From a virus: a stretch of DNA of 64,000 bases. The translations under genes were made by a program, and so were the position numbers. Position 1 is the stretch's first letter, and each line of letters opens with the position of its first letter. Where the stretch lies: IMG/VR virus record IMGVR_UViG_3300046323_000419, positions 36,364 through 100,363 of that record. The stretch is one strand, 5' to 3'. Shown here in pieces: positions 23,671 through 46,755 of the stretch. Below the pieces are notes generated by a model. It ran no database searches. It saw only the letters and a program-made list of their open reading frames with translations, and was not told the origin of the DNA.

Positions 23671-26600
23671 ATGTTAAATAATAGAAAAAATATATATCCT
23701 AAAAAAGATTTAGATGCGGCTCTAGAAAAAATTCACAAAGTAGATAAAAAAACTAAACTAGATGCTTATTTAAATGAATCAGAAAACAAAACTTTCAGAA
23801 GTAATACAATTGGTAAATCTGATTATGATAAAAATTTAAATTTAGAAAATATTGATACTACTAATGAACAAACTATTGACACATCTATTAATGAACACCG
23901 CGCTAACGAACAATCTTGGCAAGCTCATTTAGGAATTGGTGCAGTTAGAACTGTTGCTAAAGCAGCTACAGAAGTAGCTAAACTTCCTGGAGTAATTGGT
24001 GGTATTGCAATGTCACCATTTGCTGATGAAAACGAAGGTTTTGAAACAGCATTTAACAATCAATGGATTAAATTCTTTGATGGTTTAAATGAAGATGTTA
24101 AAGAAGCTTTACCTGTTTATATAAAAGAGTCTGTTAAAAATGGTGATTTCTTTACAAAAATAGGTTCTTCTGCGTTTTATGCCACAGAAGGTGCTGATGG
24201 TGCGGGATTTATGTTAGGGGCTATGGCCCCTGGTGCATTATTTAAATTGTTTGGTGGTGCAAACGCATTATTTGGAGCATCTATTAAAGCTGCTAAATTA
24301 GCTAAATATGGTGAAGGAATTGAAGCTGGTAGAAAAGCTTTAAAAGCTGCTAATATTACTATTAAAAATATTGACCAATATATGATACCTGCTTTTAATA
24401 CCATTGCTGAATCTGGCGCAGAATCTAAAGGAGTTTGGGATGGTATGGAATCTAGAAAAGGTGACGCTCATAAAGAATATATGAGTAAATTAGATCCAAA
24501 TAATTCTAGATACCAACAAGCAATATCTTTAAAAAATGAACAGTTAGATCAATTAAGACGTTCTGGTGAAATATCAATAGAAGAATATAATCAACAATCT
24601 GCAAATATAGGTACGGTTGTAGCTGAAGAAATGTTTGAAAAAGATTTTAAAGAACAAAAAGCTTTAGCTGCTCAAAATTCATTTTTTAAAAACGTAGTTA
24701 TAGTAGCAGGTCCTAACTATATCCAAGCTAAGTTATTATTTGGTAAAACCCCATCTAAAGTTTTATTAGATAAAATTGGTGGTCTTGGTGAAAAAACTAT
24801 TAAAAATACTGTTAAACAAGGTGTTAAGAATTTTGCTAAAGGATTTGCATCAGAAGGAGCTGAAGAAGTTGGTCAAACAGCAGTTGAACATAGAAATATT
24901 GAACAAGGTTTAAAATTTAAACTTGGTGATGATATGGGTGATGATTATAATCCGTTAACCTTTGGGGAAGACTTTATTAAAACTTTAGGAACTACAGAAG
25001 GTCAAATTGCTGGATTTTTAGGTGGTATAATGGGAGCACCAATGTCAGCAGTAGGTGGTTATAAACAAGATGTTCGTGATAGAAAACAAACTGAAAGACT
25101 TCGTGAAAAAATCAATGGTGCTTCTACAGCTTACGCAGATATTAAGAATACTAATATTTACGAACAGGAAGAATATACTAATCCTGAAACAGGTGAAGTT
25201 GATTTTAGAGATAAAGAAGTTGATGGTAAAAAAGTATTTATACCTGAAAATGTTGCAAAAGTTAAAAAAGCTTTAGATTTAATTGAAAGAGACTCTCAAA
25301 TTTATGATAAAGCAATTGAAGAAGGTGATACTGAAACAATTGAAATGTTAAAAGGTAAAGCTGAGTTCAATCTTATTAATAAATTTATAGGTGAAGATGA
25401 AGTTACATTAGATGCTTTAGGTGAATATTTAAAAGTAGCATTTCCTACTCAAAAATCTGAAAATATTTCTGAAGAACAGATTAAATTAAATAAGGAAAAT
25501 CTTGAAAGAGTTGATAAAATAATGAAAAAAGCAACCTCTCTTCAAAAAGATTTAACTTCTTATAAAGATATGGCTGCTTCACTTATTAGAATTAATAATC
25601 CAGAAGTTACAGAAAAACATCTTACAGATTTTATGAATAGAGTAGCTAATACTTTTATATCTGAAAGAGCTGAAGAATTTGATGCTAAAGATAAATTAAA
25701 TAAGTTAGAAAAACAAAAATCGGATTTATTATCTAATTCTACAGTAATTGAAATTGATAATCCTAATTATATTGAAGGAATAAGTTCTGAATTAGATAAA
25801 ACAACTAAAACTAGAAGTAATAATCCTAGATTAGATTTAATTAATTCTCAAATCGCTAAAGTTAAAGAACAACTTAAAGATTTTGAAGAAGCTACAAATA
25901 GTACTATATGGGATAATGAATATTTAAATAATAAAATTAGTAATGAAGTTAAAGTTAGACAAAAACTTCAAAAAGCTACATCTCCAGAAGTAGTTGAAAA
26001 AGCTGATGAAGTTTTGCAAACAATTAATAATGCAACAACTCCTGAAGAATTAAATAATCTTCCTAAAACTAATACTCCAGCAGATACAGTAATTCAACAA
26101 AAAGCTGATAAAAAGAAAACTGAATTAAAAGCTGCTAAAGAAGCTGAAGAAGCTGGTGTTATAACTAATGCTAAAGAAGATGATAATGCTTTTAATGGTA
26201 CATCTACAACAGAAACTCATTCAACAGAAGGTTCTGATATATCTGATGAATTAACTCCTCAAACAGGTGAAAATACAACAGAAGAAGATGATAAGGAATC
26301 TAAATTAATAAATCCAACACAAGGTAAAGGTGTAAAACTTATTAGTTATGATAGGAAAAATAATGAAGTTTTTAGTTGGATTAAAGAACAATTTCCTGAA
26401 GGTTTAGCTTTTGAAAGAAATCCAATTAATAAAATAGGACAAGAAGTTAGTTTTGAAATTAATGAAAATCCTACTGGTAATAGTTCTGTTTTAGAAATTG
26501 AAAAAAGAAGAAAAAATGATATTGAAAGATATGATGAAAGTGATAAAAGAGGAATAGAAAAAATAAATCCTGATGCGGAAAGTACTAAAGGTTCACCTTT

Positions 26601-29532
26601 TAAAGTTGGAGCTAAATGGAATGATGGATATAAAGTAATTATTAATAGTAGTACTGCTGATGAAAACTATATTGGAAGGGATGACCCTTATATTGTTATT
26701 TCTAAAATAATAAAACCTGCACAATTTGACGAATCTGGAATAATGACAAAAGCTCCAGTTGTTGATGTAATGTTATTTAATACTAAAGAAGAAGCTGATA
26801 AATTTATAAAAGAAAGATTAGAAAAAGTAAAACTTTCAGCAGGGAAAAGACAAATTAAAGCAAATGAAAAATATGATGCAGAAATTAAAGCTTTACCTCA
26901 AAATAAATCTAAAGTATCTGAAGCTTTAACTGCTTTTAGTAATAAAGATTTTTCTAATATTCAATTATTGATAGATTACCTTCCAATTAACATTAAGTTA
27001 GCTGAAGGAGCTTATTTACCTATTGAAACAAGACGTGTTAATGGTGAAATGAATCCTGAAACAGAAATGTTAAGAAAATCATTAATAACTAATCTTATTA
27101 ATGGTATTCCTATTGAAAGTATGAATTCTACTATAACAGGTCAATATAAAGGTGTATTACAAGTTGAATCTCCAATTGCTGAAAATAGTCTTTTAGATTT
27201 AACTGGTGTTACAGATTTAAAGTATATTAAAGAAAATACTTATTTTGTAAATATTCACGGTCAATTAGAAAATATATTAACAGGTCAAACTAGAGCTTTT
27301 CAAAATAAATTTACTAAAGATTTAGATAGAACTAAAAATTATGCTGCTGGAGAAATCTATTTAATGATCCCACAAGCAGATGGCATATCTCAGTTTCCTT
27401 TAAAACTTAATATCAGTAAATTATCTATTGAAGAATCTGAAGGTTTATTTGAAATTTATAGAGAAATTTTAACACAAGATAAAGGTTCTAATACAACACT
27501 ATCTGAAATTAGTCCTGAATTGTTATCTATAATTCAAAATGTATTTGGAGAAGAATTAAAAGTAATTACAACACCTGCTAAACAAAAGGATATTAAATTA
27601 GGTGAAATTATAGATTTATTAGTTTATGAATCTGATAAAATTAAATCTAGAATTAATGTCACAGAAGGTATTTTATACTTTGGTGATAAATCTGCACATT
27701 CTGGTGAAATTGATGCTTTAAAAGAAGATATTATGTATTTCTTACATACTCAGAAAAGACATCAAATTAAGATTAGACCTAAATCTGCTGAAGATAATCA
27801 AAGAACTAACTTATCTGCAAATTCTGCAGATTATATTAAATATTTAGTAGAAAGTAAAATATTATCTACTAACGCAGTTGTTAATCAACCATTATTTCAA
27901 GGTTATACCAATTTATTTATAAGTCCTGCAATTACTACTAAAGGTGTTGAAATAAAATCTTCAAATATAAAAAATATTAACGATAAAATTGAAGAAATTG
28001 TAAATAGAGGTGAATCTGAAAAAATTTATAGAGATACTATTACAGAAGAAGATCGTAATAAAAAAATAGATTTTGATAGTTTAATGTCAAATATAAGTAA
28101 ATCTTTAACTGGTGAAAAAGAAGAAGAAATTTTAAAAGCCAATAAACTATTAAAACAATATTTAAAAGAAATTCATCCTGATAAAATTCAAAATTTAAAC
28201 AATAAAGAACTTTCAGAAGTAATAACTACAGCAATGATAATTGTTGCTAAAAAAGGAAATATTTCAAAAATAAACGAATTATATAATTTATATAATAATT
28301 CTTTATTAAAATCAAAACCCTCTACAAAAGTTAAAGAATATACAGAAACTGAAGTTATAGAAAGAATTAAAGGTATTAGAACTATTGATGAATTAAAAGA
28401 AGGTTATGAATCACTTTCTAAATCTGAACAAGATTTATATAAACCTTTATTTACAGAAAAAAGAATTAAAATTGAAAATAAAGGTGAAGTATCTAATTTG
28501 ATCATTGAAACTAAATTAGATATAAATGAAAATAAAGTTTTTATTCTTCAAACTGAATTAAATCAAAAACTAAAAGAACTTGAAAAAGAAAAAAACGAAA
28601 TAGAAAATTATTTAGTTAATAGATTTAGTCAGTCTCATAGTCTTAATAAGAACAATCCTCAAATAATTAATGCTTTTACGAGTAATTATCAAAGTTATTT
28701 AGAATCTAGTGATAAAGCTATTCAAGAACTTGGTAATAAAATGGAAACTTATTATGAATATGAAAACAATAAAAAATATTTAGAGCGTTCTTATTCTGGA
28801 AAAATAAAGGATATTAAAATTGAACTTGAAAAGGAATCATTTAAAGTATCTGATTCAGGTGCTGAAATAGCTAGTAATAACTTTGAAGGTTTAGATTTTG
28901 GTGATAATAAAGTTATTATTCAACCTATAGTAATTGAAAAAGATGATATAAAATCAATTCGTAAAATCATTCTTGAAGAAGAAGATTACCATTTAGCATC
29001 ATTAGAAATAGTAATTAATCGAGAATTAGAAAAAGGTATTTCAGAATATAATGTGATAAAAGCATTACTTAACGCAAGTAAATTAAATGATAAACAAGAT
29101 TCTTTTGGTGAAATATTACATTCAATAAAAATGAGAGATAATAATGAACGTAAAACACCTGGTGAAAAAAGAAAAAATGCTAAATATGACACTGAATTAG
29201 CTGCTTTAGAAAATAATTCAGATAATACTAGGAATATTGAAAATAATTCCGTATCTTTGCCAGAATCAACAACTGTAATAGAAGATTTAAGTGATTCTAA
29301 TAAATTTGTATCATCTTCAGATATCCCAAATACAGTTGAAAATAAACAGCAAATGGATAAACAAAATCAAGTGTTTAAAGAACCTAAAGGTTTAGAAGGT
29401 CAAAAAGATACTAAAACAATAGTTATGTTAAATGATAAAGTTGAAAAAGGAACTGCTACTGAAGCTAATCTTAAACAATTAGAAAGTCTTAAAGATAAAT
29501 ACGGAGAAGAATACATAAAAAAATGTAAATAA
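23671..29532 (+). CDS. Giant virion cargo/ejection protein (RNAP-associated)
   Basis: 1953 aa; Gly/Ala-rich membrane-like segments, SEGAEEVGQ motif; immediately upstream of virion RNAP. Confidence 0.7.
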   Translation: MLNNRKNIYPKKDLDAALEKIHKVDKKTKLDAYLNESENKTFRSNTIGKSDYDKNLNLENIDTTNEQTIDTSINEHRANEQSWQAHLGIGAVRTVAKAATEVAKLPGVIGGIAMSPFADENEGFETAFNNQWIKFFDGLNEDVKEALPVYIKESVKNGDFFTKIGSSAFYATEGADGAGFMLGAMAPGALFKLFGGANALFGASIKAAKLAKYGEGIEAGRKALKAANITIKNIDQYMIPAFNTIAESGAESKGVWDGMESRKGDAHKEYMSKLDPNNSRYQQAISLKNEQLDQLRRSGEISIEEYNQQSANIGTVVAEEMFEKDFKEQKALAAQNSFFKNVVIVAGPNYIQAKLLFGKTPSKVLLDKIGGLGEKTIKNTVKQGVKNFAKGFASEGAEEVGQTAVEHRNIEQGLKFKLGDDMGDDYNPLTFGEDFIKTLGTTEGQIAGFLGGIMGAPMSAVGGYKQDVRDRKQTERLREKINGASTAYADIKNTNIYEQEEYTNPETGEVDFRDKEVDGKKVFIPENVAKVKKALDLIERDSQIYDKAIEEGDTETIEMLKGKAEFNLINKFIGEDEVTLDALGEYLKVAFPTQKSENISEEQIKLNKENLERVDKIMKKATSLQKDLTSYKDMAASLIRINNPEVTEKHLTDFMNRVANTFISERAEEFDAKDKLNKLEKQKSDLLSNSTVIEIDNPNYIEGISSELDKTTKTRSNNPRLDLINSQIAKVKEQLKDFEEATNSTIWDNEYLNNKISNEVKVRQKLQKATSPEVVEKADEVLQTINNATTPEELNNLPKTNTPADTVIQQKADKKKTELKAAKEAEEAGVITNAKEDDNAFNGTSTTETHSTEGSDISDELTPQTGENTTEEDDKESKLINPTQGKGVKLISYDRKNNEVFSWIKEQFPEGLAFERNPINKIGQEVSFEINENPTGNSSVLEIEKRRKNDIERYDESDKRGIEKINPDAESTKGSPFKVGAKWNDGYKVIINSSTADENYIGRDDPYIVISKIIKPAQFDESGIMTKAPVVDVMLFNTKEEADKFIKERLEKVKLSAGKRQIKANEKYDAEIKALPQNKSKVSEALTAFSNKDFSNIQLLIDYLPINIKLAEGAYLPIETRRVNGEMNPETEMLRKSLITNLINGIPIESMNSTITGQYKGVLQVESPIAENSLLDLTGVTDLKYIKENTYFVNIHGQLENILTGQTRAFQNKFTKDLDRTKNYAAGEIYLMIPQADGISQFPLKLNISKLSIEESEGLFEIYREILTQDKGSNTTLSEISPELLSIIQNVFGEELKVITTPAKQKDIKLGEIIDLLVYESDKIKSRINVTEGILYFGDKSAHSGEIDALKEDIMYFLHTQKRHQIKIRPKSAEDNQRTNLSANSADYIKYLVESKILSTNAVVNQPLFQGYTNLFISPAITTKGVEIKSSNIKNINDKIEEIVNRGESEKIYRDTITEEDRNKKIDFDSLMSNISKSLTGEKEEEILKANKLLKQYLKEIHPDKIQNLNNKELSEVITTAMIIVAKKGNISKINELYNLYNNSLLKSKPSTKVKEYTETEVIERIKGIRTIDELKEGYESLSKSEQDLYKPLFTEKRIKIENKGEVSNLIIETKLDINENKVFILQTELNQKLKELEKEKNEIENYLVNRFSQSHSLNKNNPQIINAFTSNYQSYLESSDKAIQELGNKMETYYEYENNKKYLERSYSGKIKDIKIELEKESFKVSDSGAEIASNNFEGLDFGDNKVIIQPIVIEKDDIKSIRKIILEEEDYHLASLEIVINRELEKGISEYNVIKALLNASKLNDKQDSFGEILHSIKMRDNNERKTPGEKRKNAKYDTELAALENNSDNTRNIENNSVSLPESTTVIEDLSDSNKFVSSSDIPNTVENKQQMDKQNQVFKEPKGLEGQKDTKTIVMLNDKVEKGTATEANLKQLESLKDKYGEEYIKKCK
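29229..29259 (+). promoter_or_regulatory. Intragenic promoter TAGG-N19-TATCTTTG upstream of RNAP gene
   Basis: TAGG 29229-29232, TATCTTTG 29252-29259; shares ACTAGGAATA...CGTATCTTTG with the 18653 copy. Confidence 0.6.
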
Positions 29533-29534
29533 TT

Positions 29535-32500
29535 ATGAGTTGTAAGTTTATAGTAAACGGTACAGAATCAAAACTGTATGATAAAATATTAACAGCATTT
29601 AATGGAGATGAGGAGTTATCAAAAACTCTTCATTCTTCTTTTGCTAAAGATGATAAATTCATTAAAGAGTTTGGTGATTGGGATGATGCTTATAAAAATA
29701 GTTATGAAAATTTAGAAACCAAGTTATCTTATATAGACAGAACTGAAGATAATGGTGAACCAATGTTATATCAAAATGATAAAACTGGTGATTGGTATTA
29801 TTTAGATAAAGATTATAATAAAGTAATTCTTGTTGAGAATAAGAAAAGTTTAAATTCTTTATTTGAATATCAAGAAATTCAACAACTTACTAAAGTTTTA
29901 ACTAATGATTATTTTAAAAATCATTTAAAAGTTGATTTTAACAATATTGATTTAGAAAAAGAAACTGTTTCTATTAAAATGGCAGTTATTGCTAAACTTA
30001 GAGAAAGAATTGAATTTCTAAAAACTTCTGATGATGTTTATTTTGAAGATGTTGCAGATAGATTAGAAATAGCATTAAAAGATAATTTAAATGAAATTGT
30101 TGAAAATGTTAAAACTATTTTTGAACAAAATAAAATTAGTTATAAAGATAATTTAGATTCTGATGAAGATTCTAATTTATCTGAAATTGAGATTATAGAG
30201 AATCAAAAAGACCCTTCATATAATACTCAATCTAATGAAAAAAGTAGTAAAGAAGGTGTTACAGCTAATATTAAATTTAGATTATCATTAATTGAAGATG
30301 TTGAAAATTCAGATTATTTTTTAAATGATAAAGTATATATTGATTTTAATGTAATTCATAATGATTTATTAAGTCAATTATCAAATATTGTAGCATTAGA
30401 AAAAGATGGTGTACAAGAAGATAGATTTGAATTATTAAAAGCAGAAGTTTTAAAATTTGTAGGTAAAAAACCTTATTTTAAAGAACTTTATAGAATGTTA
30501 TCTGATCCAGATTTATCTGAAGAAATTAAAAATGAATTTTCATCTGCATTTAATTTACATCAAGGTAATTTAAATACATCTAAATTTAAAAGAGATAAAG
30601 ATGGTAATATAGAATGGTCTAATATTAATGCTGCACAATCTGCAAAGAAAGAAAATGATGTTTTATACGTTTGGGGAAATAATTTTAAAACTGATTTTGT
30701 TACTATTGATGGTGATAAATCATTTATAACTCCAGAGAATAAGAAAGTATTAAAATCTTATTCTGATAAACTTAATAAAATTAATGTACTTCAAGAAACT
30801 GCAGTAAATGATTTTATTGAAATATTAAGAGATTTAGGTGTTGAATCAACTATTCAAGGTTTTAATCATTATCTAGATGATTTAAAGCTAATTGGAAATG
30901 ATCCTGAAATATCTAATAAAATATTTAATAAAACTATAACAGGTTTAAAATATTTCTTTAAATCAATTGAAGATAATAAAATTTCTAATTTAGATGAAGC
31001 TTTTAATACTCAAACTATATTTAAAAATTTAGCTAGAGCTGAAGTATTTTATATGGCTGAAAATGCAGATTTTTCTGTATTTACAGGTGGTAAACAAAAA
31101 TGGACATTTTCATATCCGTCATTTTTATCAAATACAATAGAAGCTTGGAAAAAAGATAGAAATATATTATTAAATCATTATCAAGCATCTGAATATAATT
31201 CAGGTTCTTATAAGATGAAATATTTACTAGCATTTGGAGATACTTATGAAGTTGATGAATTAACTTTACCAGAAGCTCAAGAAGCAGCTAGAGTTGAAGA
31301 ATCTAAGAAAAGAATTAATGATATTAGTTTAGGTAGTTTTAATGTATTTCAAGAAGAAAAGGAAACTACTACAGAATCTGCAAATGTTAAAGAAATAAAT
31401 GAAAATCTATATATTTTAGATAATGTTAATAAAACTGTAGCTTTCATTAATGGTGGTTTATCTTACCATAGAGGTACTACACCTGCGGAAAAAGGTACTC
31501 AGTATGAAATATCTATGGGTGGAAATATATCCACAAATGCAAGATATGGTGGTGAATTTGGTATAGATTTTAATGAAGAAGCTTTAGATATAGTATTTGA
31601 ATACTTTGATTCTGAATATAGAAGAATGAGAGTTGAAAATGCTTTTATGGCTGATGAAAATAATAGTAATAAATTAATTACTTATTATCATTTGGGTGCA
31701 AAAAATGTTTTTAAATCACAGTTATTTCCATCATTAAGTCCTAATGAAATTGCTAATGCTGCTAAAGATTTTGGTAGCAATTTTCATTTAATATATGAAA
31801 ATGGTAATGCTTATTTAGAAACCTTAAAAGGTTCTGATTTTGAAGCAGATATTAAACGTTATATTAAAAAAGCATTAGTAGAAGATATTATAGATGTGGA
31901 TGGTACTTTAAGTAGTTTAGTAAAAGCTGGACTATTTGAACAAAATGCAGATAGTTCTTATAAAAATTTAGGAATTGATTCTAAAGTTTGGGATAAATAT
32001 GGTCAAGATCAAGCGCTTAAAGTAGCTACAGATTATTATATTAATTCTTTAATAGCACAAGTTGAATATTCTAAAATGTTTGCTGGAGATGTAGCTTATT
32101 ATAAAAATGGAGTTGATTATAAAAAACGTATTCCCGCTACATATACAGATGGTATTTATCAAAGACTTAATGATAAAAATAAGAATTTTACAATTGCAGT
32201 TATTGAAAGTGTAAATATCGCTAGTCCATTTCATCCAGCTATTGAAGAATTAGTTGGTGAAAAGATTGCAAAATATTATACAGATATTAATTCTGCTGAT
32301 GCTCAAGCTTGGATTACACCTGCTAGATGGAAAAATCTTATTGAAAGTTTAGGTAAATGGAATTCAATATATCAATCAGCTTATGATAAATTAGAAGGTA
32401 TTAATAATGAACCTTTTACTGAAAAAGAGTTAAAGAAAGTAGCTCAACCTTTAAAAGGTGTTTACTTTCAAAATATTAATGGACAACCTGTGTTTTTAAA

Positions 32501-36038: not shown

Positions 36039-36358
36039 ACGAAGATTTAGAATTTGAAAGATTACTTATTGAAAAAAGACATTCTGAGTTAATAGTTTTA
36101 TTAACTAAAATGTTAAATAAACCATCTTCTACTACAGATTTAAAAAAAATAGAAAGTCTTTTAACTTTATTATCTGAAAAAAAAGAAGATAATATTCCAA
36201 AAAGTATTCAAATATTAAGTGAAAGTATTATTAAAAGTCAAAATAAATTAATTTCAACAATTGAAGAACTTAAAAATAAAAAAGGTGAATGGACATTTGA
36301 AATTATAAGAAATACTTATGGTAATATATATGAAGTTAAAGCAATTCAAAATAAATAA
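36035..36358 (+). CDS. Hypothetical coiled-coil protein, first gene of inserted cassette
   Basis: ATG overlaps RNAP TGA; C-term WTFEIIRNTYGNIYEVKA. Confidence 0.55.
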   Translation: MNEDLEFERLLIEKRHSELIVLLTKMLNKPSSTTDLKKIESLLTLLSEKKEDNIPKSIQILSESIIKSQNKLISTIEELKNKKGEWTFEIIRNTYGNIYEVKAIQNK

Positions 36359-36424
36359 AAATGGTAGCATTTACAATAACTACATTCAGAACTTTAGAAA
36401 TTATAACAGTAAAAAAAATAAATT

Positions 36425-38770
36425 ATGCCAGCAATAAGAGATTCATCATTTAACTTTAATACAGCTACAGCAGCTTCCTTAGTCTTACCTGCGGTGAATT
36501 TGGTAGCAAACGATTTATTGATAGCGTTTATATCTATAGATACAGGTACGGCTGCGGTCACTTCAACAGGATGGACAGAACTATTCCGTACTACATCAAC
36601 ATCACAGTTGGTGTGTATGTATAAAATAAGCAACGGAACTGAAGGAGATATTACTTTTGCGTACACGACAGAAACAGCAGTGGGTTGTTTAATAGCTATC
36701 AAAGACGTTAATACTACCAATCCATTTGGAGCAACTCCAGTTTTTAATAGTGCAGCATCAGCCACGACGGCTAAAATTACTATGCAACAAATTACTACTA
36801 CTATTCCAAACTCATTAGTATTATACGCTAATGGTCGTTCAGCAGTAGGTATTCCATCGTTTTTAGAAGGTGCAGTAACAAGTTTATTTGCAGGTGATGG
36901 AGGTGCAGAATCATTAGCAGTAGGTTGGGGGTTTCAACCAACGGCAGGATTAACTCCAAACAATATAGTATCATCAGCTTTAGCAGCAGTTGCAGGAGTT
37001 AGAGCAGTTATACAAATTGCTCCGCCAAGTGGAGGTGCTACCGTGATACCTACATATTGTGCTTCGGATTTATCAATTTATGTAGACCCTATTAACGGAA
37101 CAAGTGCTTACAATGCAAATACTGCATTGGCAGCTACGGCAGATACAGGATTTAGTACATCATTAGGAGGTTTAGTTGCAGCAGACGCAACAGTTGCAGC
37201 CGTTACAGATGTTGGAATTAACTCGTTTCACTCCGTAGGAAGATTGACATCAATATCAGCTAGTAAAAACTTATCTGGTGCAGAATTAGTTTTATTGGAT
37301 GCTAATAGACCAAATATTACAGGAAAAAACATATTAGTGCATTTAGGAGCAAGTACAGAGGGACAACTTCAAAGGTTTTCAAGTGTTGCGTCAGGCAGAG
37401 GAATATGGTTTGGTGTTCGTAGTGGAGCTGCAAGTAACTGGAAAATATGGCAGGTTTACGGTGCGGAAAATGGTATTGGTAGACATAAACCTGTAATTAT
37501 AAATTCATCAGCTTTAAACGTAAAATCAACAAATGGAACATTAGACACGACATTAGCTAAAGCATTTGGATTTTGGGTGTCAGGTTCTGGAGTTACAACG
37601 ACTATTTGGGATTTCGCTTCCTTATGGGTTTTAGATACGTGTGCTGTAGCAGGTGGTATTGTTGCTTTTCCTATGGATATTTCAGGAATAACAAACGCAG
37701 CGGCTACAGGAAAAGAAAGAAAAAACATTCTACAACAAGGTGAAAAACAAGCATTATTATTAAGCCATATACAGATAGGAAACGGTGGGACATACCCTGT
37801 TTATTTAAACTTAGATGGTACAGCTATTGAGTTTCCTAAACAATATGATGAAAGTATTGCGCAAGCGAGCTACAATAGTGTTGATAATGTATGTGGACTC
37901 ACTTACTATGCAGGTGCTAATGATGTTATAAAACACATAAATTCAGTTGTTTCTTCTTCTTCTCGGTATAAATGGGGTTTACATGCTTCAAGTTCAGCAA
38001 GTGCAAGTTATGATTTTTCAGGGCTTTCTGTAATTGGGGCAGGGACAATAACATTAGCAATTGCAATTACTATTACGGAGTTGACAATAAACAACTACTC
38101 TACTTTAGATATATCTAGTGCAGATTTAGTTAACTGCACAATTTTAAACGTTCCAAGTGCAAACGATAGTATGACTTCCAACGCTTCAACTTCTATTACA
38201 GGAAGTACTATAAACGTTACAGGTGTTACTGCTGGAAATAGATGGTGTTCAGTAGCAAACCCTTCAATATTTAGTAATTCAACATTTATAGGGTCTGGAA
38301 CTACAGGACACGCAATAAGAATTACAACTCCAGGGACATACAGTCTAAGTAATTTAATATTTACATCATTTGGCGCAAACGCTACGAATTTTTCGGCTAT
38401 TCATAACGATAGTGGAGGACTAGTAACATTGAATATATCAGGAGGGACAACTCCTACAATTAGAAATGGAGCAGGTGCATCAACAGTTGTAAACAATAGC
38501 GTATCAATAACCATTGAAGGTAATGTTAGTTTATTAGGTGCAGAGGTTAGAATATATGACTTAGATAACGCACCCGCAGGAAGTTTAGGGACTGAATTAT
38601 CAGGAACGGAATCTAATGTCTCAGCAAACTATGTTTACAGTGGTGGGGCAGGAAATTTAATATTTATACAAATTATGAAAACAGGATACGTGGAATACGG
38701 ACAGTCTATAACTATTCCATCTTCAAATACAACAATTGACATTATTTTAACGAAAGACAATAACATATAA
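36425..38770 (+). CDS. Putative virion surface/fibre protein (beta-rich, beta-helix-like)
   Basis: 781 aa, Ala/Ser/Thr/Gly-rich, higher GC than flanks; C-term GAEVRIY..GTE motif. Confidence 0.55.
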   Translation: MPAIRDSSFNFNTATAASLVLPAVNLVANDLLIAFISIDTGTAAVTSTGWTELFRTTSTSQLVCMYKISNGTEGDITFAYTTETAVGCLIAIKDVNTTNPFGATPVFNSAASATTAKITMQQITTTIPNSLVLYANGRSAVGIPSFLEGAVTSLFAGDGGAESLAVGWGFQPTAGLTPNNIVSSALAAVAGVRAVIQIAPPSGGATVIPTYCASDLSIYVDPINGTSAYNANTALAATADTGFSTSLGGLVAADATVAAVTDVGINSFHSVGRLTSISASKNLSGAELVLLDANRPNITGKNILVHLGASTEGQLQRFSSVASGRGIWFGVRSGAASNWKIWQVYGAENGIGRHKPVIINSSALNVKSTNGTLDTTLAKAFGFWVSGSGVTTTIWDFASLWVLDTCAVAGGIVAFPMDISGITNAAATGKERKNILQQGEKQALLLSHIQIGNGGTYPVYLNLDGTAIEFPKQYDESIAQASYNSVDNVCGLTYYAGANDVIKHINSVVSSSSRYKWGLHASSSASASYDFSGLSVIGAGTITLAIAITITELTINNYSTLDISSADLVNCTILNVPSANDSMTSNASTSITGSTINVTGVTAGNRWCSVANPSIFSNSTFIGSGTTGHAIRITTPGTYSLSNLIFTSFGANATNFSAIHNDSGGLVTLNISGGTTPTIRNGAGASTVVNNSVSITIEGNVSLLGAEVRIYDLDNAPAGSLGTELSGTESNVSANYVYSGGAGNLIFIQIMKTGYVEYGQSITIPSSNTTIDIILTKDNNI

Positions 38771-38780
38771 ATAAACACAA

Positions 38781-40283
38781 ATGGCTTTAATTACACACTT
38801 AAATTTTACAACTACTTTAAAACAAAGTACTTCGCCTCGTGGCGCAACTCCAAATGGAAATTTCTATTTTGACGTAGCTAATAATGAAATTCAACTTATA
38901 GGAGTTGATGAACTACCCACTGTCGACTTTGGTGGCGGTGCAGTTACCAATCCTTTGAACAATGCGGATGGACTCACAATGAGAGCTATCTACAACTTCG
39001 AAAACCAAGAAAGAAGACTTGACGAAAATCTAAGAAAGTACTTAAGAGGTACGGATGGAGATTACCGTTTTGCGGGTGCATTCTCTTTTGTGAATGGTGT
39101 GAAATTAGACGGTACAGACAGGAATAAAATTAGAGGGTCTGGTTTTATTGAGTATGCAGATACGCAAGACGGACAAACAGACGTAGATAGAATCTATCAT
39201 GGTGTACTATCATTGGTATCTATTCAGCCTGGTACAACAACAAGGTTTGCATTAGTTACAGATACAACTGAAACTACATTACAGTCCGCTACATGGGAGA
39301 GTTTTGTTAGACTTGGCGACGTTAATGAGGTAGTACAAGTTTACGGAAGTACTTCTTTTGGTGATGCAGGCGCAGGGAATTTCGATTACACTACAAGAAC
39401 ATTGATTGTTCGTGTACGTTCTTGGGGTTACAATGCAGGTGAAACAACTTCTGTATTAACTGGTATTTCTGAGTTCTCAGGATTCTCCGCAGGTTATGGT
39501 GTTGGTGAATCTATCAATCCTTCAAACTCGTACACATTAGCCAATGTTTTTGGAGGTGCGCAAATTGCTCCGTGGACAGGAATGACATTAGAAAAATTAG
39601 CTGCTCCGCAAGTGGAGTCAGGATTTAATGAAGCAAATGGTAACTTTACATGGGTTTTAAACAACACATTAGGCGGTACGGTACAAGAATGTGCAGCGTA
39701 CTTGGATGCTGTTGCTTTGCAAAATTTAGATATTGATTCAGGCGCAGGAACTTACAACGGATTAAAAGGACGAGTTTGGTACAGTAGGAATGCGGCAGGT
39801 AAAGTTGTGACATCTTCTATAAGTGGTGCAGGTTTATTTATTGAGAATTTAAGTACAGCAGAAAAGCAAAATGTTATAATGACAGATAACGCTGGAGCTA
39901 CTAAAACATATCCATTTTACCCTGAAGTACAAATAACAGTTGGTTCAGCGGCAGTTGCAGATGCGAACGCTTGGTATCACGCATTTTATGTGGATGGTGC
40001 AGCAGCAGCAGATTTTGATGCAAATGGAGCGGTTACAGTTAATGATTCATTAGGTAATCCTGTAAAAGGAAATGTATCAGCGGATCATGTAGCAGGAAAA
40101 ATAAGTTTCCCTTATGATTATGATGGTAATACACAAGCGGGATTGGCAGCAGGAATAGATAAGTCAGTTGTTGTGGTTGTTGAAGGAGATGGGATAGCGT
40201 CGCAAGCTATTACCTATTTCACAATTACAAGAAGTACGATTGTTTCGGTTACTTGCGCACCTTCACTTGATACAAATGCTTAA
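38781..40283 (+). CDS. Putative virion structural protein
   Basis: 500 aa, Gly/Ala/Thr-rich, same cassette. Confidence 0.5.
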   Translation: MALITHLNFTTTLKQSTSPRGATPNGNFYFDVANNEIQLIGVDELPTVDFGGGAVTNPLNNADGLTMRAIYNFENQERRLDENLRKYLRGTDGDYRFAGAFSFVNGVKLDGTDRNKIRGSGFIEYADTQDGQTDVDRIYHGVLSLVSIQPGTTTRFALVTDTTETTLQSATWESFVRLGDVNEVVQVYGSTSFGDAGAGNFDYTTRTLIVRVRSWGYNAGETTSVLTGISEFSGFSAGYGVGESINPSNSYTLANVFGGAQIAPWTGMTLEKLAAPQVESGFNEANGNFTWVLNNTLGGTVQECAAYLDAVALQNLDIDSGAGTYNGLKGRVWYSRNAAGKVVTSSISGAGLFIENLSTAEKQNVIMTDNAGATKTYPFYPEVQITVGSAAVADANAWYHAFYVDGAAAADFDANGAVTVNDSLGNPVKGNVSADHVAGKISFPYDYDGNTQAGLAAGIDKSVVVVVEGDGIASQAITYFTITRSTIVSVTCAPSLDTNA

Positions 40284-40286
40284 TAT

Positions 40287-41609
40287 ATGTCGATACTCAA
40301 TCCTATAATAGACTCTATAGATGGAGCTACAAGAAGGATATATCTAAAGTCGGGAGTAGCTAACTACTTCCCGATTGATGATTTATACCAAGAATATAAA
40401 AGACTGAGAGCAACTGATGAAAACCTAAGAAAATATTACCCTTTGTTAAGAGCAGAGGGTAATATTCCTAAAGGGAGCGGTGCATTTACCCCTAGATATG
40501 TAGTTTTGATTAATGGAACTAAAATAGTACCGTTTAACGAAAGTTTGCAAATAAATCAGTTAGGAGATATGATTACGGACAATCCTGCGGTAGATGCTAC
40601 ATTATACGACATTAGCACTTTGACTGTCGCAAAACCAATCTTTATAAAACCATCGGAGGCGGAAACGATACAGTTAAATAGCACGCAAATAGAATACGCA
40701 TCGTATAACGGTGGTGTTACAATAGATGCTGTAAATGGTACAGATAGCTCAGCATATCCTTATGGTACACCTTTATTTCCATGTAAAACAACAGCAAATT
40801 CTTATGCAATTCGAGTTGCGAGAGGATTTAAAAAAGTATATCTAAGGAGTGATTTAAACTTAATAGGAATCCCTGACGGAATTTTAAATGGTTTAGATAT
40901 AATAGGTGAAACAGGGAATAGAAGACATACATTGACAGTGACTAACGTATTGGTAACTGATTGTAAAGCTACTAATATAAAGGTTAATGGAACATTTAAA
41001 AACGGCTCTACTACGCAAGCATCAGATTGTGAAATATTCGGGTCTTCAAATGTGAACTTACGAGCTGAAAATTGCAGTATATCTTCGGGGGTGTATGAAA
41101 GTACAAGCTTGACAAATTGTGTTTTGGATGGAGATATTAAGATAAAGACAGGTGGGAGCATGAGTGGAATAGGGATAATTTTTGAAGGTGATTTTACAAC
41201 TATCGATATGCAAAGTGCAGTTTCAACCGTTTCTATGGATGTAGACTCAGGATATTTTAAGTTGATGAATGCTGTTACAGGATGTTTAGCAGAATTTAAT
41301 TTAAGGGGTGGCGAAATAGAAATTGATACAACTTGTACAGGTGGAGAATATTATTTAGAAGGTTATGGTGTATTGTATAATGGGGGTACTATGATTGAAA
41401 AGGCAAATAATTTACAATCAGTTATTATTTCTGAAACAGTTGTGTCGGAAATGGATAACAATAGTGTTAAATTAGGTGAATTATATCAAATAGAAGGTTT
41501 AGATATTAATAATCCTGTTGTAATCACAGAAACATCTAAAACTACAGGTAGTATTAATTTGGAAATATCTGGAAATGGTGAAACTCTATCAGTTATAACA
41601 AGACAGTAA
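40287..41609 (+). CDS. Putative virion structural protein with beta-helix-like region
   Basis: 440 aa; short Cys-spaced beta repeats (DCEIF, NCSIS, NCVLD). Confidence 0.5.
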   Translation: MSILNPIIDSIDGATRRIYLKSGVANYFPIDDLYQEYKRLRATDENLRKYYPLLRAEGNIPKGSGAFTPRYVVLINGTKIVPFNESLQINQLGDMITDNPAVDATLYDISTLTVAKPIFIKPSEAETIQLNSTQIEYASYNGGVTIDAVNGTDSSAYPYGTPLFPCKTTANSYAIRVARGFKKVYLRSDLNLIGIPDGILNGLDIIGETGNRRHTLTVTNVLVTDCKATNIKVNGTFKNGSTTQASDCEIFGSSNVNLRAENCSISSGVYESTSLTNCVLDGDIKIKTGGSMSGIGIIFEGDFTTIDMQSAVSTVSMDVDSGYFKLMNAVTGCLAEFNLRGGEIEIDTTCTGGEYYLEGYGVLYNGGTMIEKANNLQSVIISETVVSEMDNNSVKLGELYQIEGLDINNPVVITETSKTTGSINLEISGNGETLSVITRQ

Positions 41610-41875
41610 TGATGAAAACATTATCTAGAGCTACAAAAGGTTATTTATGTAAATCAAGTTTAACATTAAGTATTGCTACAAAAGGTTATTTATGTATTAA
41701 TAAATCTGTTGAAATTATAGATAAACCTTTTAAATATAAAAATAATTCTAGTAATACAAAATCACCTATTTTAAAATCACCTATTTTAAACAGATATGAT
41801 TTAGTAAGACAAGAGAATGATGATACAATATTATTAATAATTAAAATATTTATAGAATGTCAAGAAAATGCTTAG
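41609..41875 (+). CDS. Small hypothetical protein with internal duplications
   Basis: ATKGYLC twice and KSPIL twice; ends QENDDTILLIIKIFIEC. Confidence 0.5.
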   Translation: MMKTLSRATKGYLCKSSLTLSIATKGYLCINKSVEIIDKPFKYKNNSSNTKSPILKSPILNRYDLVRQENDDTILLIIKIFIECQENA

Positions 41876-42198
41876 AGCAATTAAATAATAAAAATGTTTT
41901 AGATGAATTTGATTCTAAAATAAAAAACGGAATATCTGAAAAAGTTGCTGTATTAGAAATTTTGAATAAACAAATTAGCAGTTTTAAAAATGAATATACA
42001 TTATTTATTAATGAGTTTAAAGATTTTAAACCAGAAATAAATAAATTTAAAATTATTGAAGATAATATTAATAATCAAATTCAAGAATTATCTAAAATAA
42101 AAGTTGATAATGTTGTAGAAGTTGATACTATTGTGGAAAATAAAATTGAAGATGATTGGCAAAATGAAGATAATGATGATACCTGTGTACCATTTTAA
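41857..42198 (+). CDS. 113-aa protein with terminal cysteines; putative cargo-chain adaptor
   Basis: Cys only at positions 5 and 110; C-terminal KVDN..ENK segment similar to RNAP tail. Confidence 0.55.
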   Translation: MSRKCLEQLNNKNVLDEFDSKIKNGISEKVAVLEILNKQISSFKNEYTLFINEFKDFKPEINKFKIIEDNINNQIQELSKIKVDNVVEVDTIVENKIEDDWQNEDNDDTCVPF

Positions 42199-42207
42199 TA
42201 AAAAAAT

Positions 42208-45200
42208 ATGAGTTGTAAAGATAAACAAAAATTTAAAACCTCGGAAGCCTCATCAAAGGCTTCCATGAGGTCTAAAGGAGCTATTGATAAATTTTTAAAT
42301 ATATTAGATATTAATGTATTTAACAAACTTAATAAAAAATGGACTGTAGATGCTAAAGAGAGATTTAATATTGATGGTAACCTATTTCGTAATGATGACG
42401 GTAAAGCCACCCCTAATAAAGCTGCGTTTAAACAAATAGATGCTGTTAAAGGAATTATTTATCCTAATAAAATAGATTTCAACGATCTTATAGGGTCTAA
42501 AAAAAATGAATTAGTTTCTGACGAATCTCAAAAAACACCTTCTGTCGATAATAATTCTAATTTGGAATCAAATAAATCTATGTTATTTGGTAGTAAATCT
42601 TTAAAAGATTCTTTTACTTCAACAGAAGTGTTACAAAATATTATAGATTCTAATTTAGATTTATCAGATTCCGCACTAGATTTAGTTGGAAAAGCTACAA
42701 AATTATTAAGAAATTCTAGAACTAGAGTTAAAATAATTAGTCAAGAACAGTTTGATAAAATGACTAAAAATTCTAAAGGTAAAGGTACCGCTGTAATGGC
42801 TTATAATTACGATTTAGGAAGTGTCATTTATATGCCAGAAAGTTCATTAACTAATTTTTCAAATGTTGAAATTGTAAGTTCATTTTTGCACGAAGTTGCT
42901 CACGAATTAAGTCTTAAGGCTGTTCTAGATCCAAAAACTATGGCTGAAAAGTCATTTAATGAATTTATTACAAAAGCTTTTGAACAGTATGAATATTTAG
43001 GAAAAGGTTTAAATAAAAGTGATAGTTATGGTTTTACAAATGTTCAAGAATTTGTAGCAGAATTATATTCTAATGATAAATTTCAAGAAGAAATTAAAAA
43101 TTTAGATAAAAACTTTTGGCAAAGATTTATAACTGAACTTAGAAGATTAGTAGGATTACCAAAATCTTTACAAAATGATAATTTAATTGAAAGTTTATTA
43201 TTAATTAAAACTGTCGAAGATTTTGTAAATGATAATGAAATTCAACTTAATAATCATAAAATCACAACTTCAGAAAGTAATAAAGTTTTATTAAAAAGAA
43301 TTGAAAGTGATTCACAATATAGTAGTTTAGAATCTAAATTAGATAATTTTATTGATAAAGCTAAAAAAGCAATGCAAGTTATTCAAGAAAAAACTATTAG
43401 ATCTAATAGAAAAAAATCTACTGAATCTAAAGAGGATCGTATTAGAGAAAATAAAGAATTAATAGATACTTTAAATAAATACGAAAAATCTCAAAAATGG
43501 AAAGCTATAATAGGTTATACACAATCTTTTAATAACACTATTAATCACGTTGAAAAATTATTAAATAATTTATTAAATACTAAAAATATTTATGAAGATA
43601 AACTCGATGATGTAATCAAATCATATAAAGATTATTTATCAGCTTATGATTTACTTCCTGAAATTAAAGAGTTGATGAGTCAAGCTGATTTAAAACAATT
43701 TGAATTAACTGAAGAAGAATTAGAAGATTATCAACAAATAAAAAATTTTTTAACTAAAGCTAAAGAAAAACATGATGCTATTGAAAGTAAATTTTTAGCA
43801 ATTAGCAAAGCTCAAATATTACAAGATTTTAGCAACCCGTTATATAATACAGAAGTTGAAACTAAACAACGTAATGAATTAATTAAAGAATATAATAGTT
43901 TATCTGATAAAGGTGGGTTAACTGTAGATCAATATATATCTAAAATGTTAAATACTAGAGACTTAGATGATTATAAAGCTGATTTAAAAGCATCTGCAGA
44001 AAAGATATTAAATGACCCATCACAAGATATTAGTGGTTTTTCAGCTAAATATGAAGATAATTTAAATACTAAAAGTAAATTTATTCAAGTTGTTAATCAA
44101 ATATTAATTGAATCTTTTGATAAAGTTAAAAGTTTAACTGTTGCAAAAGTTCATCAAATGGCTAAAACTTTTGATAAATTTATTAAAGAAAAGGGTAATG
44201 TTAAATTATCAGAACTTAATAAAAATTTAATTGAAAGAGATTCAGAAGGTAATGTTTATTTAAAAGGTAAATATAGTATTAAATTTAAAGAATCTTTTAC
44301 TAAACTTTTAAATAATATTGAAGATTCTTATGAAAATAGTTTTAAAAAATTACAAGTTCAAGATATTAATTTAGACTCTTTAAGAAAAGATAAGAAAACT
44401 ATTTCTTTACGTAAATCTGGCGAACATAATTTCATTGATAATGATATAGCTGTAGTTACTGTTAATGGTATTAATACTGGTATAAAAGTTCAAATAGATC
44501 AACTTAAAACTTTTAGTAACTTTAATAGTTTAAGTGATGAACGTAAAAATGATTTTGCAAAAGCAGTAGGTAATTATAAAGATTTTGAAGATTTTAAAAA
44601 TTCAAATGATTATGCCAAAGAAGATTCTAAAAAATCTCAAATGTATCCTGAAATTTATAATTTTATAAATAATTCTGGTTCAATGGATATTATATCCTAT
44701 GTTAAAGTAGAAGAAGATTCTAAAACATCTACTACATTTAAAAATAGGAATAAAATGTATAAAGCTTGGTTTAAAGAAAATACTATTAAAAATGAAAAAG
44801 GTAAAACAATACCAAATCCAAAATTTTTAAATAAAGAATTAATTGGAATTGAAAAAGAAGTTTTAGATAATTATATTAAAATTAATCAAGAAAACGATAA
44901 TATTGAAGGTTTTGATTCATTAATAACTAATATCATTGGTGCTGAATTTCATAAATTACCATCTCAAAGTAAATCTGATTTAGAAAGAGCTTTGGAGTTA
45001 GATATTAAAGGTTTAACTAAAGATAAATGGAATGATTTAACTAAAGTTAGAACTGATGATATTGGTATTGAAACTGGTAATGAGAATAAAAATAGTCAAG
45101 GTGAAATTATAAGACGTGTTAAAACAGCTTATAGAGGTAAAATTGACCCTAAAGAACAATCTTTAGATTTAGAAACAATGTTTAGAAATGAATATTGGAA

Positions 45201-46755
45201 TGGTCAAAACTTTAAGGAAAAAAGTAGACTTGAACCTAAGTTATTAATGATTACAGATATTGCTTTAAATAATGACTATTATACTGGTAAAAATAAAGAT
45301 GTTGTTCCAGGTTTAAGTAATACTTATAATAGACTTGTAGGTATTATGGAGCGTAATGTTTACGATATTATGAGTAAACACGGTGGTAATTGGGGTCAAG
45401 TTGATATTAATAAAGTTACAAATGCTTTAAATGGGTATGCTGCAAGTTTAGCTATGACACTTAACAAAGCTGCAAGTTTTACAAACGTTACTGGTGGTTT
45501 AACAGATATTTTTATAGAAGCTGTTGGAAGTCATAGATTTAATGTTGCAACTTTTGCTAAAGCTGAAGTTAAATACACAAAAGAATTACCTAATTTACTT
45601 TTAGATACAACTAAATCTGTTAAAACTTCTTATTTTAATCAACTTCTCGATATGTTTGATGTAATGGGTGGTCTTGGTCAAAATGAACAAGAAGCATTGC
45701 GTAATAATATACTTAGAAAATTTGGAACTACTCAATCTGGTAATATTTTAAATGATATGGGTGAACATGCAATGCATTCAATACTTACACAGTCTATATT
45801 AGATGGTATTAAAGCAATGGATGAAAATAACAATTATTTAGATAAAGATGGTAATGTTACAACTGAAACTAAAGGTGCGTCATTGGCAGATATGTTATAT
45901 TTTGATAATGAAGGTATATTAAAAATGAATTCTAAAGTTGCTTATTCTGGATTTAATTTAACTACTAAATATCACGAAGGTGGTAAATCTCAAGTCAATG
46001 CTTTAATTAAACATAAAGTAATGAATTTATTTGGTGTATATGATATTAAATATCAAAGTGAGTTTTCTAAAACAGTTGCTGGTAAATGGGTAATGTTGTT
46101 TAAAAAATTCTTTTTAAGTAAAGCGGCTTATAGATACACAGGATTTACAACTTCTTATAAAAAGAAATCTGAATTAACAGAAGATGATAGATTTTATAAT
46201 TCTGCTGAAAAAGAATATATTGAAGGTACTTATACTACATTAGTAAGATTTTTAAGAGAAACAGGTATTCCTAATTTACAAATGTTACAAACAATGTATA
46301 TGAATTGGAAAAATCTTAGTGAATATGAAAAATCTAATCTTAAAAAAGCTACTATGGAAATAATGTTAACGTCTGTTATATTACCATCGTTAGGTTTATT
46401 AATGGCTGGTATGGATGATGACGATGACGAAAACAATTTATTGTGGTTTTTCATATACGTAAATAGACGATTAACTAGAGAACTTGCTCAATTTAGAAAT
46501 CCGTTAGAGGCTGCTAAAATGATTGCAAATCCAGTTGCAGGTATTAGATTTATTCAAAATGGATTAAATTTTATATATGATGTTACAACACCAGTTAATT
46601 TTGTTCCAGGTGAAAATGAATCTGTATTTGGATATTTAGATGAAAATTCTAAAGGTGAAAATAAAATGTGGAATCACGCAAAAAAACTTGTTCCAATTAT
46701 ACCACAAATAGGTATTGATTATAAACAAAGATATGGTTTAGAATTTGCAAAATAA
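42208..46755 (+). CDS. Giant virion cargo protein with zincin metallopeptidase-like motif
   Basis: 1515 aa; FLHEVAH..QEFVAE; C-terminal hydrophobic segments; last gene of the late arm. Confidence 0.75.
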   Translation: MSCKDKQKFKTSEASSKASMRSKGAIDKFLNILDINVFNKLNKKWTVDAKERFNIDGNLFRNDDGKATPNKAAFKQIDAVKGIIYPNKIDFNDLIGSKKNELVSDESQKTPSVDNNSNLESNKSMLFGSKSLKDSFTSTEVLQNIIDSNLDLSDSALDLVGKATKLLRNSRTRVKIISQEQFDKMTKNSKGKGTAVMAYNYDLGSVIYMPESSLTNFSNVEIVSSFLHEVAHELSLKAVLDPKTMAEKSFNEFITKAFEQYEYLGKGLNKSDSYGFTNVQEFVAELYSNDKFQEEIKNLDKNFWQRFITELRRLVGLPKSLQNDNLIESLLLIKTVEDFVNDNEIQLNNHKITTSESNKVLLKRIESDSQYSSLESKLDNFIDKAKKAMQVIQEKTIRSNRKKSTESKEDRIRENKELIDTLNKYEKSQKWKAIIGYTQSFNNTINHVEKLLNNLLNTKNIYEDKLDDVIKSYKDYLSAYDLLPEIKELMSQADLKQFELTEEELEDYQQIKNFLTKAKEKHDAIESKFLAISKAQILQDFSNPLYNTEVETKQRNELIKEYNSLSDKGGLTVDQYISKMLNTRDLDDYKADLKASAEKILNDPSQDISGFSAKYEDNLNTKSKFIQVVNQILIESFDKVKSLTVAKVHQMAKTFDKFIKEKGNVKLSELNKNLIERDSEGNVYLKGKYSIKFKESFTKLLNNIEDSYENSFKKLQVQDINLDSLRKDKKTISLRKSGEHNFIDNDIAVVTVNGINTGIKVQIDQLKTFSNFNSLSDERKNDFAKAVGNYKDFEDFKNSNDYAKEDSKKSQMYPEIYNFINNSGSMDIISYVKVEEDSKTSTTFKNRNKMYKAWFKENTIKNEKGKTIPNPKFLNKELIGIEKEVLDNYIKINQENDNIEGFDSLITNIIGAEFHKLPSQSKSDLERALELDIKGLTKDKWNDLTKVRTDDIGIETGNENKNSQGEIIRRVKTAYRGKIDPKEQSLDLETMFRNEYWNGQNFKEKSRLEPKLLMITDIALNNDYYTGKNKDVVPGLSNTYNRLVGIMERNVYDIMSKHGGNWGQVDINKVTNALNGYAASLAMTLNKAASFTNVTGGLTDIFIEAVGSHRFNVATFAKAEVKYTKELPNLLLDTTKSVKTSYFNQLLDMFDVMGGLGQNEQEALRNNILRKFGTTQSGNILNDMGEHAMHSILTQSILDGIKAMDENNNYLDKDGNVTTETKGASLADMLYFDNEGILKMNSKVAYSGFNLTTKYHEGGKSQVNALIKHKVMNLFGVYDIKYQSEFSKTVAGKWVMLFKKFFLSKAAYRYTGFTTSYKKKSELTEDDRFYNSAEKEYIEGTYTTLVRFLRETGIPNLQMLQTMYMNWKNLSEYEKSNLKKATMEIMLTSVILPSLGLLMAGMDDDDDENNLLWFFIYVNRRLTRELAQFRNPLEAAKMIANPVAGIRFIQNGLNFIYDVTTPVNFVPGENESVFGYLDENSKGENKMWNHAKKLVPIIPQIGIDYKQRYGLEFAK

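Follow-up and report, generated by a model that had tools for sequence, protein, structure and literature searches.

How a crAss-like phage packs its ~0.7 MDa RNA polymerase (RNAP) proteins and feeds them in order through a narrow tail is an open question; ejection order has been described as "likely controlled by packing and interactions" (Bayfield 2023, PMC10172136). We approached this question through a 64,000-nucleotide (nt) stretch of viral DNA, here called the window (positions 36,364 to 100,363 of IMG/VR record IMGVR_UViG_3300046323_000419, a record of 100,363 bp with a GC content of 26%). Within the window lie genes for giant cargo proteins whose few cysteines (Cys) all sit next to the protein ends. 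An earlier note on this DNA had proposed that these Cys link the proteins into a chain that includes a 113-amino acid (aa) adaptor. Having compared the window with its homologs, we favor a head-to-tail disulfide chain among the cargo proteins as the probable, though by no means assured, explanation.

The source of the window is a marine crAss-like phage on three counts: a PF25725 domain, a match to the RNAP structure in PDB entry 6VR4, and a gene order that is that of phage phi14:2. No close relative of the window turned up when phages were searched for near-identical sequence. The RNAP is encoded by a 2167-aa open reading frame (ORF) at 29535..36038 (+ strand, as are all features described here). 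It matches 6VR4 over query residues 8-1368 (E = 7.9e-206), is 29% identical to phi14:2 gp077 over 1282 aa, and contains at aa 1348, in a conserved context, the sequence DFDID (DxDxD), which we take to be the catalytic motif of the Crassvirales virion RNAP family. By homology, we assign the protein to the Crassvirales virion RNAPs (phi14:2 gp66 type, PDB 6VR4), and on the same grounds it is predicted to be carried in the virion and ejected.

Four ORFs carry the Cys in question. Protein A (1953 aa; 23671..29532), which ends in ..EEYIKKCK, has a single Cys at residue 1952 (nt 29524-29526). The RNAP has two, Cys3 (nt 29541-43) and Cys2164 (nt 36024-26), as does the 113-aa ORF, which we call the adaptor (41857..42198; head MSRKC), with Cys5 (nt 41869-71) and Cys110 (nt 42184-86). 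Protein D (1515 aa; 42208..46755), which begins MSCKDKQKF, has a single Cys at residue 3 (nt 42214-16). The pattern is thus polar, with Cys at the C-terminal end only of A, at both ends of the RNAP and the adaptor, and at the N-terminal end only of D. Exact counting bore out all of these positions and numbers, which the earlier note had given by eye, as well as its statement that two further cargo ORFs, of 1039 and 609 aa, contain no Cys. Its figure of six Cys in ~7,400 residues, all within five residues of an end, also held, with an exact total of 7,396 aa over the six ORFs. As Cys makes up 1.1% of residues elsewhere in the window ORFs, ~82 Cys would be expected in these proteins. At this background rate the probability that the six ORFs contain no interior Cys is ~4e-36, and the probability that six randomly placed Cys all fall five or fewer residues from an end is ~3e-13. 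The genes of the chain do not form an unbroken block: between the RNAP and adaptor genes lie 5.8 kb of DNA with non-cargo genes, which had been overlooked. This interval contains five ORFs (111, 781, 500, 440, and 88 aa) with 19 Cys in total.

Cys counts in homologs of the RNAP, A, and D revealed that the terminal Cys are conserved and that interior Cys are rare, making up 0.003-0.013% of residues across the three sets. We collected 120 RNAP homologs, 97 of them full-length, with identities down to 34%. Cys occur at both ends in 94 of the 97, within the first 8 and last 7 residues, and the entire set of 120 contains 8 interior Cys in 272,774 residues. Among 54 homologs of A, 52 have a C-terminal Cys and none has an N-terminal Cys (interior Cys, 5 in 91,437 residues). 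The 58 homologs of D have the opposite polarity: 55 have an N-terminal Cys and none has a C-terminal one (interior Cys, 12 in 90,883 residues). Polarity is kept in homologs down to ~27-35% identity, and terminal Cys are retained in more than 200 homologs although the position of the Cys and the junction DNA vary. Some RNAP homologs (P0054, P0063-P0087, and others) reach 2,700-3,400 aa, with helicase (AAA_30, UvrD_C), AlkB-like, or DUF1768 domains fused near the C-end; these too have only the two terminal Cys.

The same arrangement is present in cultured crassviruses, in which the homologous proteins, phi14:2 gp078-gp077-gp076 (gp077 being the protein of PDB 6VR4) and crAss001 gp47-gp50-gp49, are virion-borne. 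In phi14:2, gp078 has Cys1797 of 1797 residues, gp077 has Cys3 and Cys2179, and gp076 has Cys3; mass spectrometry has found all three in virions. In crAss001, the only Cys of gp47 is Cys2339 of 2341, gp50 has Cys5 and Cys2404, and the only Cys of gp49 is Cys5; these proteins were likewise detected in virions (Bayfield 2023, PMC10172136). Phage DAC15 has the same terminal Cys arrangement as crAss001. In both crAss001 and DAC15, the A-type gene lies on the strand opposite the other two, yet its C-terminal Cys is present, indicating that gene adjacency is not what preserves these cysteines. The phi14:2 and crAss001 sets have three members and no adaptor, whereas the window has a fourth, small member and a foreign cassette between the genes. 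We found no paper in the literature that describes terminal cysteines in crAss cargo.

We then asked how often Cys face each other across gene junctions. In 38 viral-contig loci, we tallied the places where one large Cys-poor ORF follows another, which gave 38 distinct junctions. Cys are present on both sides of 32 junctions, on neither side of six, and on one side only of none. Three of the six junctions without Cys are the outer N-terminal end of A. In the other three, the RNAP gene is split by a group I intron between the DFD and ID parts of the catalytic motif (..GSDFD and IDKMY..). In one of these loci (L003, 14007-14284), the gap is filled by an intact group I intron (RF00028, 85 bits, E = 2e-22), which was missed by a default Rfam gathering run with fast filters and was detected, at 85 bits, by a permissive run. 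In the other two (L004, 14137-15040; L033, 4605-5507), two RF00028 half-matches flank an endonuclease-sized ORF of 214-217 aa, which is Cys-rich and probably encodes a homing endonuclease. Since all three breaks lie at introns within the catalytic motif, they are not protein ends. Between the RNAP and D genes there is often an ORF of 117-167 aa with interior, non-terminal Cys (L003, L011, L013, L023-L026, L030, L031, L033, L035, and L038-L040); thus, the RNAP/D Cys pair is kept even when the two genes are not adjacent.

Fused genes gave the converse result. In phage FpV4, A and the RNAP are fused in gp32 (4287 aa), whose single Cys is at residue 4286, and gp33 has Cys3. In crAssphage, the RNAP and D are fused in gp44 (4070 aa), which has Cys3 and lacks a C-terminal Cys, and gp45 has Cys1956 of 1957. 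Fusion thus removes exactly the facing Cys pair, which fits C-end-to-N-end pairing rather than self-closure of the RNAP or independent tags.

A solved structure provides a precedent. In cyanopodophage A4/A-4L, electron cryomicroscopy revealed that the C-terminal helix of gp27 is docked in gp26, with Cys from the two proteins disulfide-bonded inside the capsid (PNAS 2025, PMC12002296). In the A-4L genome (KF356198), the single Cys of gp27 is residue 1715 of 1717, and the single Cys of gp26 is Cys5, in the head MSKHC. As in the window, then, consecutive giant internal proteins have single Cys within ~5 residues of their facing C- and N-ends and are otherwise Cys-free. A4 belongs to a different phage family, Saffermanviridae, with a genome of 41.7 kb, and unlike the window it has one junction, no RNAP in the chain, and no adaptor. 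A comparison of A and D with solved PDB chains at E-values up to 1 yielded no relevant match, A4 included. With a shared Cys signature and no detectable sequence similarity, the window would work like the A4 pair without being a member of its family. The A4 study treats the bond as a local stabilizer and not as a general rule (PMC12002296). In crAss001 virions, intermolecular disulfides are present in tail and portal-vertex proteins (PMC10172136). In the Schitoviridae (N4-like phages), the giant ejected proteins, including the virion RNAP, are almost Cys-free, which is thought to avoid unwanted disulfides during passage (PMC11445570). There Cys are absent altogether; in the window, only the interior is Cys-free, and one Cys stands at each facing end.

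Together, conservation, the both-or-neither pairing at junctions, the loss in fusions, and the A-4L disulfide strongly support the polar chain that the earlier note had drawn, A-C~C-RNAP-C~C-adaptor-C~C-D. At the terminal Cys, the C-end of each ejected protein would be paired with the N-end of the next, in the order A (..KKCK) to (MSCK..) RNAP (..IKCIGL) to (MSRKC..) adaptor (..DTCVPF) to (MSCKDK..) D. The product would be a single thread of ~5,750 residues with uniform N-to-C polarity, which could therefore travel through the tail as a single polypeptide would. A disulfide beside a short docking peptide is the most likely link; it would arise once the particle has been assembled or released, and the host cytoplasm would reduce it. 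Purging of interior Cys would ensure that the thread cannot branch or mis-pair. In this scheme the adaptor may be a free-standing connector made of a head, a helical body, and a tail. Heads of its kind are found after ..LI[KE]C[IY]G.. tails, and its tail is the portable tag found before MSCKDK-type D heads. The mechanism attached to the chain fared less well than the chain itself: we infer the bond, its chemistry, the time at which it forms, and any role in co-packaging, ejection order, or cytoplasmic release.

A search of 1.84 billion representative proteins detected three relatives of the adaptor. P0121 (110 aa, 65% identity) keeps MSRKC.., ..DTCVPF, and a Cys-free interior. P0122 (322 aa) keeps the adaptor head, has an extra domain, and ends in a different Cys tail (..DIPPTSNC); its extra domain is found within the RNAP C-terminal extensions of other phages (41% identity, E = 1e-43). 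P0123 (88 aa) consists of the adaptor head only and lacks a C-terminal Cys. In an AlphaFold2 model of the adaptor, residues 3-88 form a helical body predicted with confidence, whereas residues 86-113 are a disordered tail; the tail tag is acidic. A 1.5-kb metagenome contig (L018), the sole match in a metagenome pattern scan, encodes a fibre-like ORF, then a homolog of the 88-aa ORF that precedes the adaptor gene in the window, and then an overlapping ORF that starts MSRKCFEK. The adaptor aligns to residues 1-106 of this last ORF (36% identity, E = 3e-11), and D-family residues ~53-115 align to its residues 110-174 (up to 73% identity). The only Cys of this ORF is Cys5, and the junction pair is absent. 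The adaptor module is thus fused to a D-family body in L018, and the adaptor would be a free-standing piece of the RNAP-to-D stretch, with a Cys pair at each place where the stretch is cut. The last 19 nt of the 88-aa ORF in the window (41857-41875), and the last 28 nt of its homolog in L018 (1035-1062), are also the first of the MSRKC gene. Searching viral contigs with the adaptor yielded a tail-only match, and viral-contig searches with the RNAP tail module, the MSRKC head DNA pattern, and P0166 alone yielded no useful match. When a complex of the adaptor with the last 150 aa of the RNAP and the first 400 aa of D was predicted, a control with D replaced scored almost as high, and we count the prediction neither for nor against the chain.

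The C-terminal modules move between proteins. Many RNAP C-termini carry, nearly unaltered, the 16 residues with which the adaptor ends (..DDWQNEDNDDTCVPF), attached to unrelated preceding sequence, and the tail of A, ..EEYIKKCK, serves as the RNAP tail in other phages. Relatives of the window RNAP that are 84-87% identical in the body have three different C-terminal modules, and P0009, with a body only ~54% identical, has the window's RNAP tail module ..LLIKCIGL (the last ~50 aa). As the same module occurs on diverged bodies and different modules occur on similar bodies, C-terminal modules have been exchanged between phages. On ~25 contigs, a given tail class goes with a single class of following head: DTCVPF is followed by M[SN]CKDK, LLKKICK by M(S)ISCPNK, VIK.CL by MSCIN, NP.DM.CI by MSC[ST]F.YVE, LKKYCNPS by MVCPNK, and LIECYGK by MAIHCVN (Cys5).

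How did the window come to have an extra member? Between the RNAP and the adaptor, GC content rises to 0.30-0.43 (~36.3-41.4 kb), compared to 0.19-0.25 in the flanks, and both the GC island and the module boundaries were confirmed. The GC-rich cassette (36425..41609) holds the ORFs of 781, 500, and 440 aa, with 16 Cys. The 500-aa ORF shares 60% identity with a Paraglaciecola Antarctic GD virus 1 protein and is similar to "structural proteins" from unrelated phages, including a T7-like cyanophage; for the 781-aa ORF, the match is to Virus Rctr197k and spans the C-terminal 225 aa. The cassette probably encodes tail fibres or other outer structural proteins rather than cargo, as a horizontally acquired fibre or host-range module. 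Similarity of the RNAP body to its closest relatives ends ~80 residues before the C-end. The simplest reading is that recombination imported a foreign RNAP tail, the fibre-like cassette, the 88-aa ORF, and a foreign D-type head, and that this imported head was joined in frame to the resident ..DTCVPF tag. The adaptor most probably arose when recombination brought in the foreign RNAP tail, cassette, and D-type head. Specific to this window are the four-member chain with its natural, free-standing putative adaptor, the portable Cys tail tags, the 5-kb foreign cassette, and the fusion seen in L018.

Several observations weigh against the disulfide chain. Bayfield et al. (PMC10172136) make no mention of bonded cargo proteins in crAss-like phages. 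The timing and means of oxidation are a difficulty, the host cytoplasm being reducing; a search of the phage genome for thioredoxin and glutaredoxin found none, and an Erv1 sulfhydryl oxidase search, whose control was silent, says nothing either way. A few homologs have one interior Cys, and several interior Cys occur in gut crassviruses. Terminal Cys without partners exist: crAssphage gp47 (L019; 857 aa) has only Cys856, and FpV4 gp30 (L020; 598 aa) has only Cys5. Neither has an obvious partner, and each may link to another component. The adaptor has only the three detectable homologs, one of which (P0123) lacks the C-terminal Cys, and it is a putative virion component. The covariation of tails and heads is suggestive only, as it could be explained by genetic linkage, the tail and head usually being adjacent in the DNA.

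These difficulties leave room for other explanations. One is that the termini dock and the Cys form a link other than a disulfide, through a shared metal ion, a Cys-Lys bridge, or a cluster bridging copies of the junction. Counts, polarity, and parity suit any two-partner thiol link, Lys is enriched next to Cys in A tails (67% of flanking residues, compared to 10% background), and some heads contain His (MAKHCVNHK). Still, one Cys per end supplies only two ligands, most tails and heads lack a conserved His, Asp, or second Cys, and the sole solved case with the same signature, A-4L, is a disulfide, all of which makes a different chemistry improbable. About as little weight can be given to the idea that each terminal Cys peptide is an independent tag for packaging or anchoring to the portal, capsid interior, scaffold, or a cofactor, with no link between cargo proteins. 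Terminal targeting peptides for capsid cargo are precedented in other systems, such as the T4 capsid targeting sequence and encapsulin cargo-loading peptides; tail conservation extends beyond the Cys; and the unpartnered Cys of gp47 and gp30 are what such tags could look like. Independent tags do not, however, predict the strict polarity of A and D, the tally of 32 paired and no orphan junctions, or the loss of exactly the facing pair in fusions, and we consider them a poor fit. Cys counts alone would also permit other pairings, such as an RNAP closed on itself through Cys3 and Cys2164, with A joined to D; these are very improbable, since they do not predict that fusion of A with the RNAP or of the RNAP with D removes only the facing pair and leaves the other intact. 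The same low probability attaches to Cys as by-products of DNA at gene junctions. The TGT codon of Cys2164 does share bases with the ATG at 36023, and so does the Cys84 codon of the 88-aa ORF with the ATG of the adaptor, of which it is an out-of-frame reading; this origin is ruled out by conservation of the Cys in the homologs, where the junction DNA differs, and by the A-type genes that retain their Cys on the opposite strand.

A different doubt concerns the adaptor alone. The chain could be real and the 113-aa ORF a recombination scar, unpackaged or dispensable, with the RNAP linked to D directly or not at all; in this version the ORF would consist of a foreign D-type gene's N-terminal stub joined to the old RNAP tail tag. 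Its place at the right edge of the imported block, the match of its head and body to the N-terminus of the D-family protein in L018, and its scarcity of homologs are all as expected of a scar. Against this, P0121 has preserved the length, both Cys, the Cys-free interior, and the tag, P0122 keeps the head while bearing another Cys tail, and persistence through 35% divergence argues for selection. Moreover, without the adaptor the Cys of the RNAP tail would face a D head Cys of a class that does not match its own. We regard the scar as unlikely, though worth keeping in mind, and retain the adaptor in the favored disulfide chain. Two further candidates for the Cys motifs and the RNAP end were rejected. 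CaaX-type prenylation (CIGL, CVPF) and a lipobox do not suit Cys whose distance from the C-end varies between 1 and 7 residues and whose place at the N-end varies over positions 2-8, in proteins without signal peptides. As the 111-aa ORF has no homolog among RNAP C-termini, we also dismissed the idea that programmed frameshifting extends the RNAP into it.

The remaining ORFs of the region lie outside the proposed chain. The 1039-aa ORF (18720..21839) belongs to the cargo protein 1 family, scoring 77.3 bits against PF25725 (crAss_CARG1; curated cut-off 27), and its homologs in L003-L016 likewise have no Cys. It contains a zincin-like HExxH motif, HERSH, at residue 103 (window 19026-19040). The 609-aa ORF (21839..23668) had no match in a family search and is placed in the cargo protein 2 position by synteny with phi14:2 gp079 and crAss001 gp46, both of which lack Cys. 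Protein D also has a zincin-like HExxH motif, HEVAH, at residue 228 (window 42889-42903), which is conserved in D homologs. The 111-aa ORF (36023..36358), which has no Cys, starts at ATG 36023 with an alternative ATG at 36035, and had no family and no homolog in our searches. The 88-aa ORF occupies 41609..41875, its 3' end overlapping the adaptor gene start, and the same overlapping pair occurs in L018. PHROGs and Pfam searches gave no match for A, the RNAP, the adaptor, or the cassette ORFs.

An end-to-end tether is a concrete hypothesis for the ordered passage of cargo. It would explain why Cys have been purged from the cargo proteins, why gene splits and fusions are tolerated, and why C-terminal modules swap along with the gene that follows. 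For loading foreign proteins into phage particles, too, the portable tags and the natural adaptor could supply parts. More speculatively, and at odds we would put well below even, the injected load of the Crassvirales may be an addressable thread in which each C-terminal tag recognizes one head class and is locked to it by a disulfide. If so, genes could be split, fused, moved to the other strand, or swapped between phages as long as tag and head pairs match, small head-linker-tail adaptors would restore compatibility after recombination, and the thread would fix both the stoichiometry of the cargo and its N-to-C order of exit through the tail.

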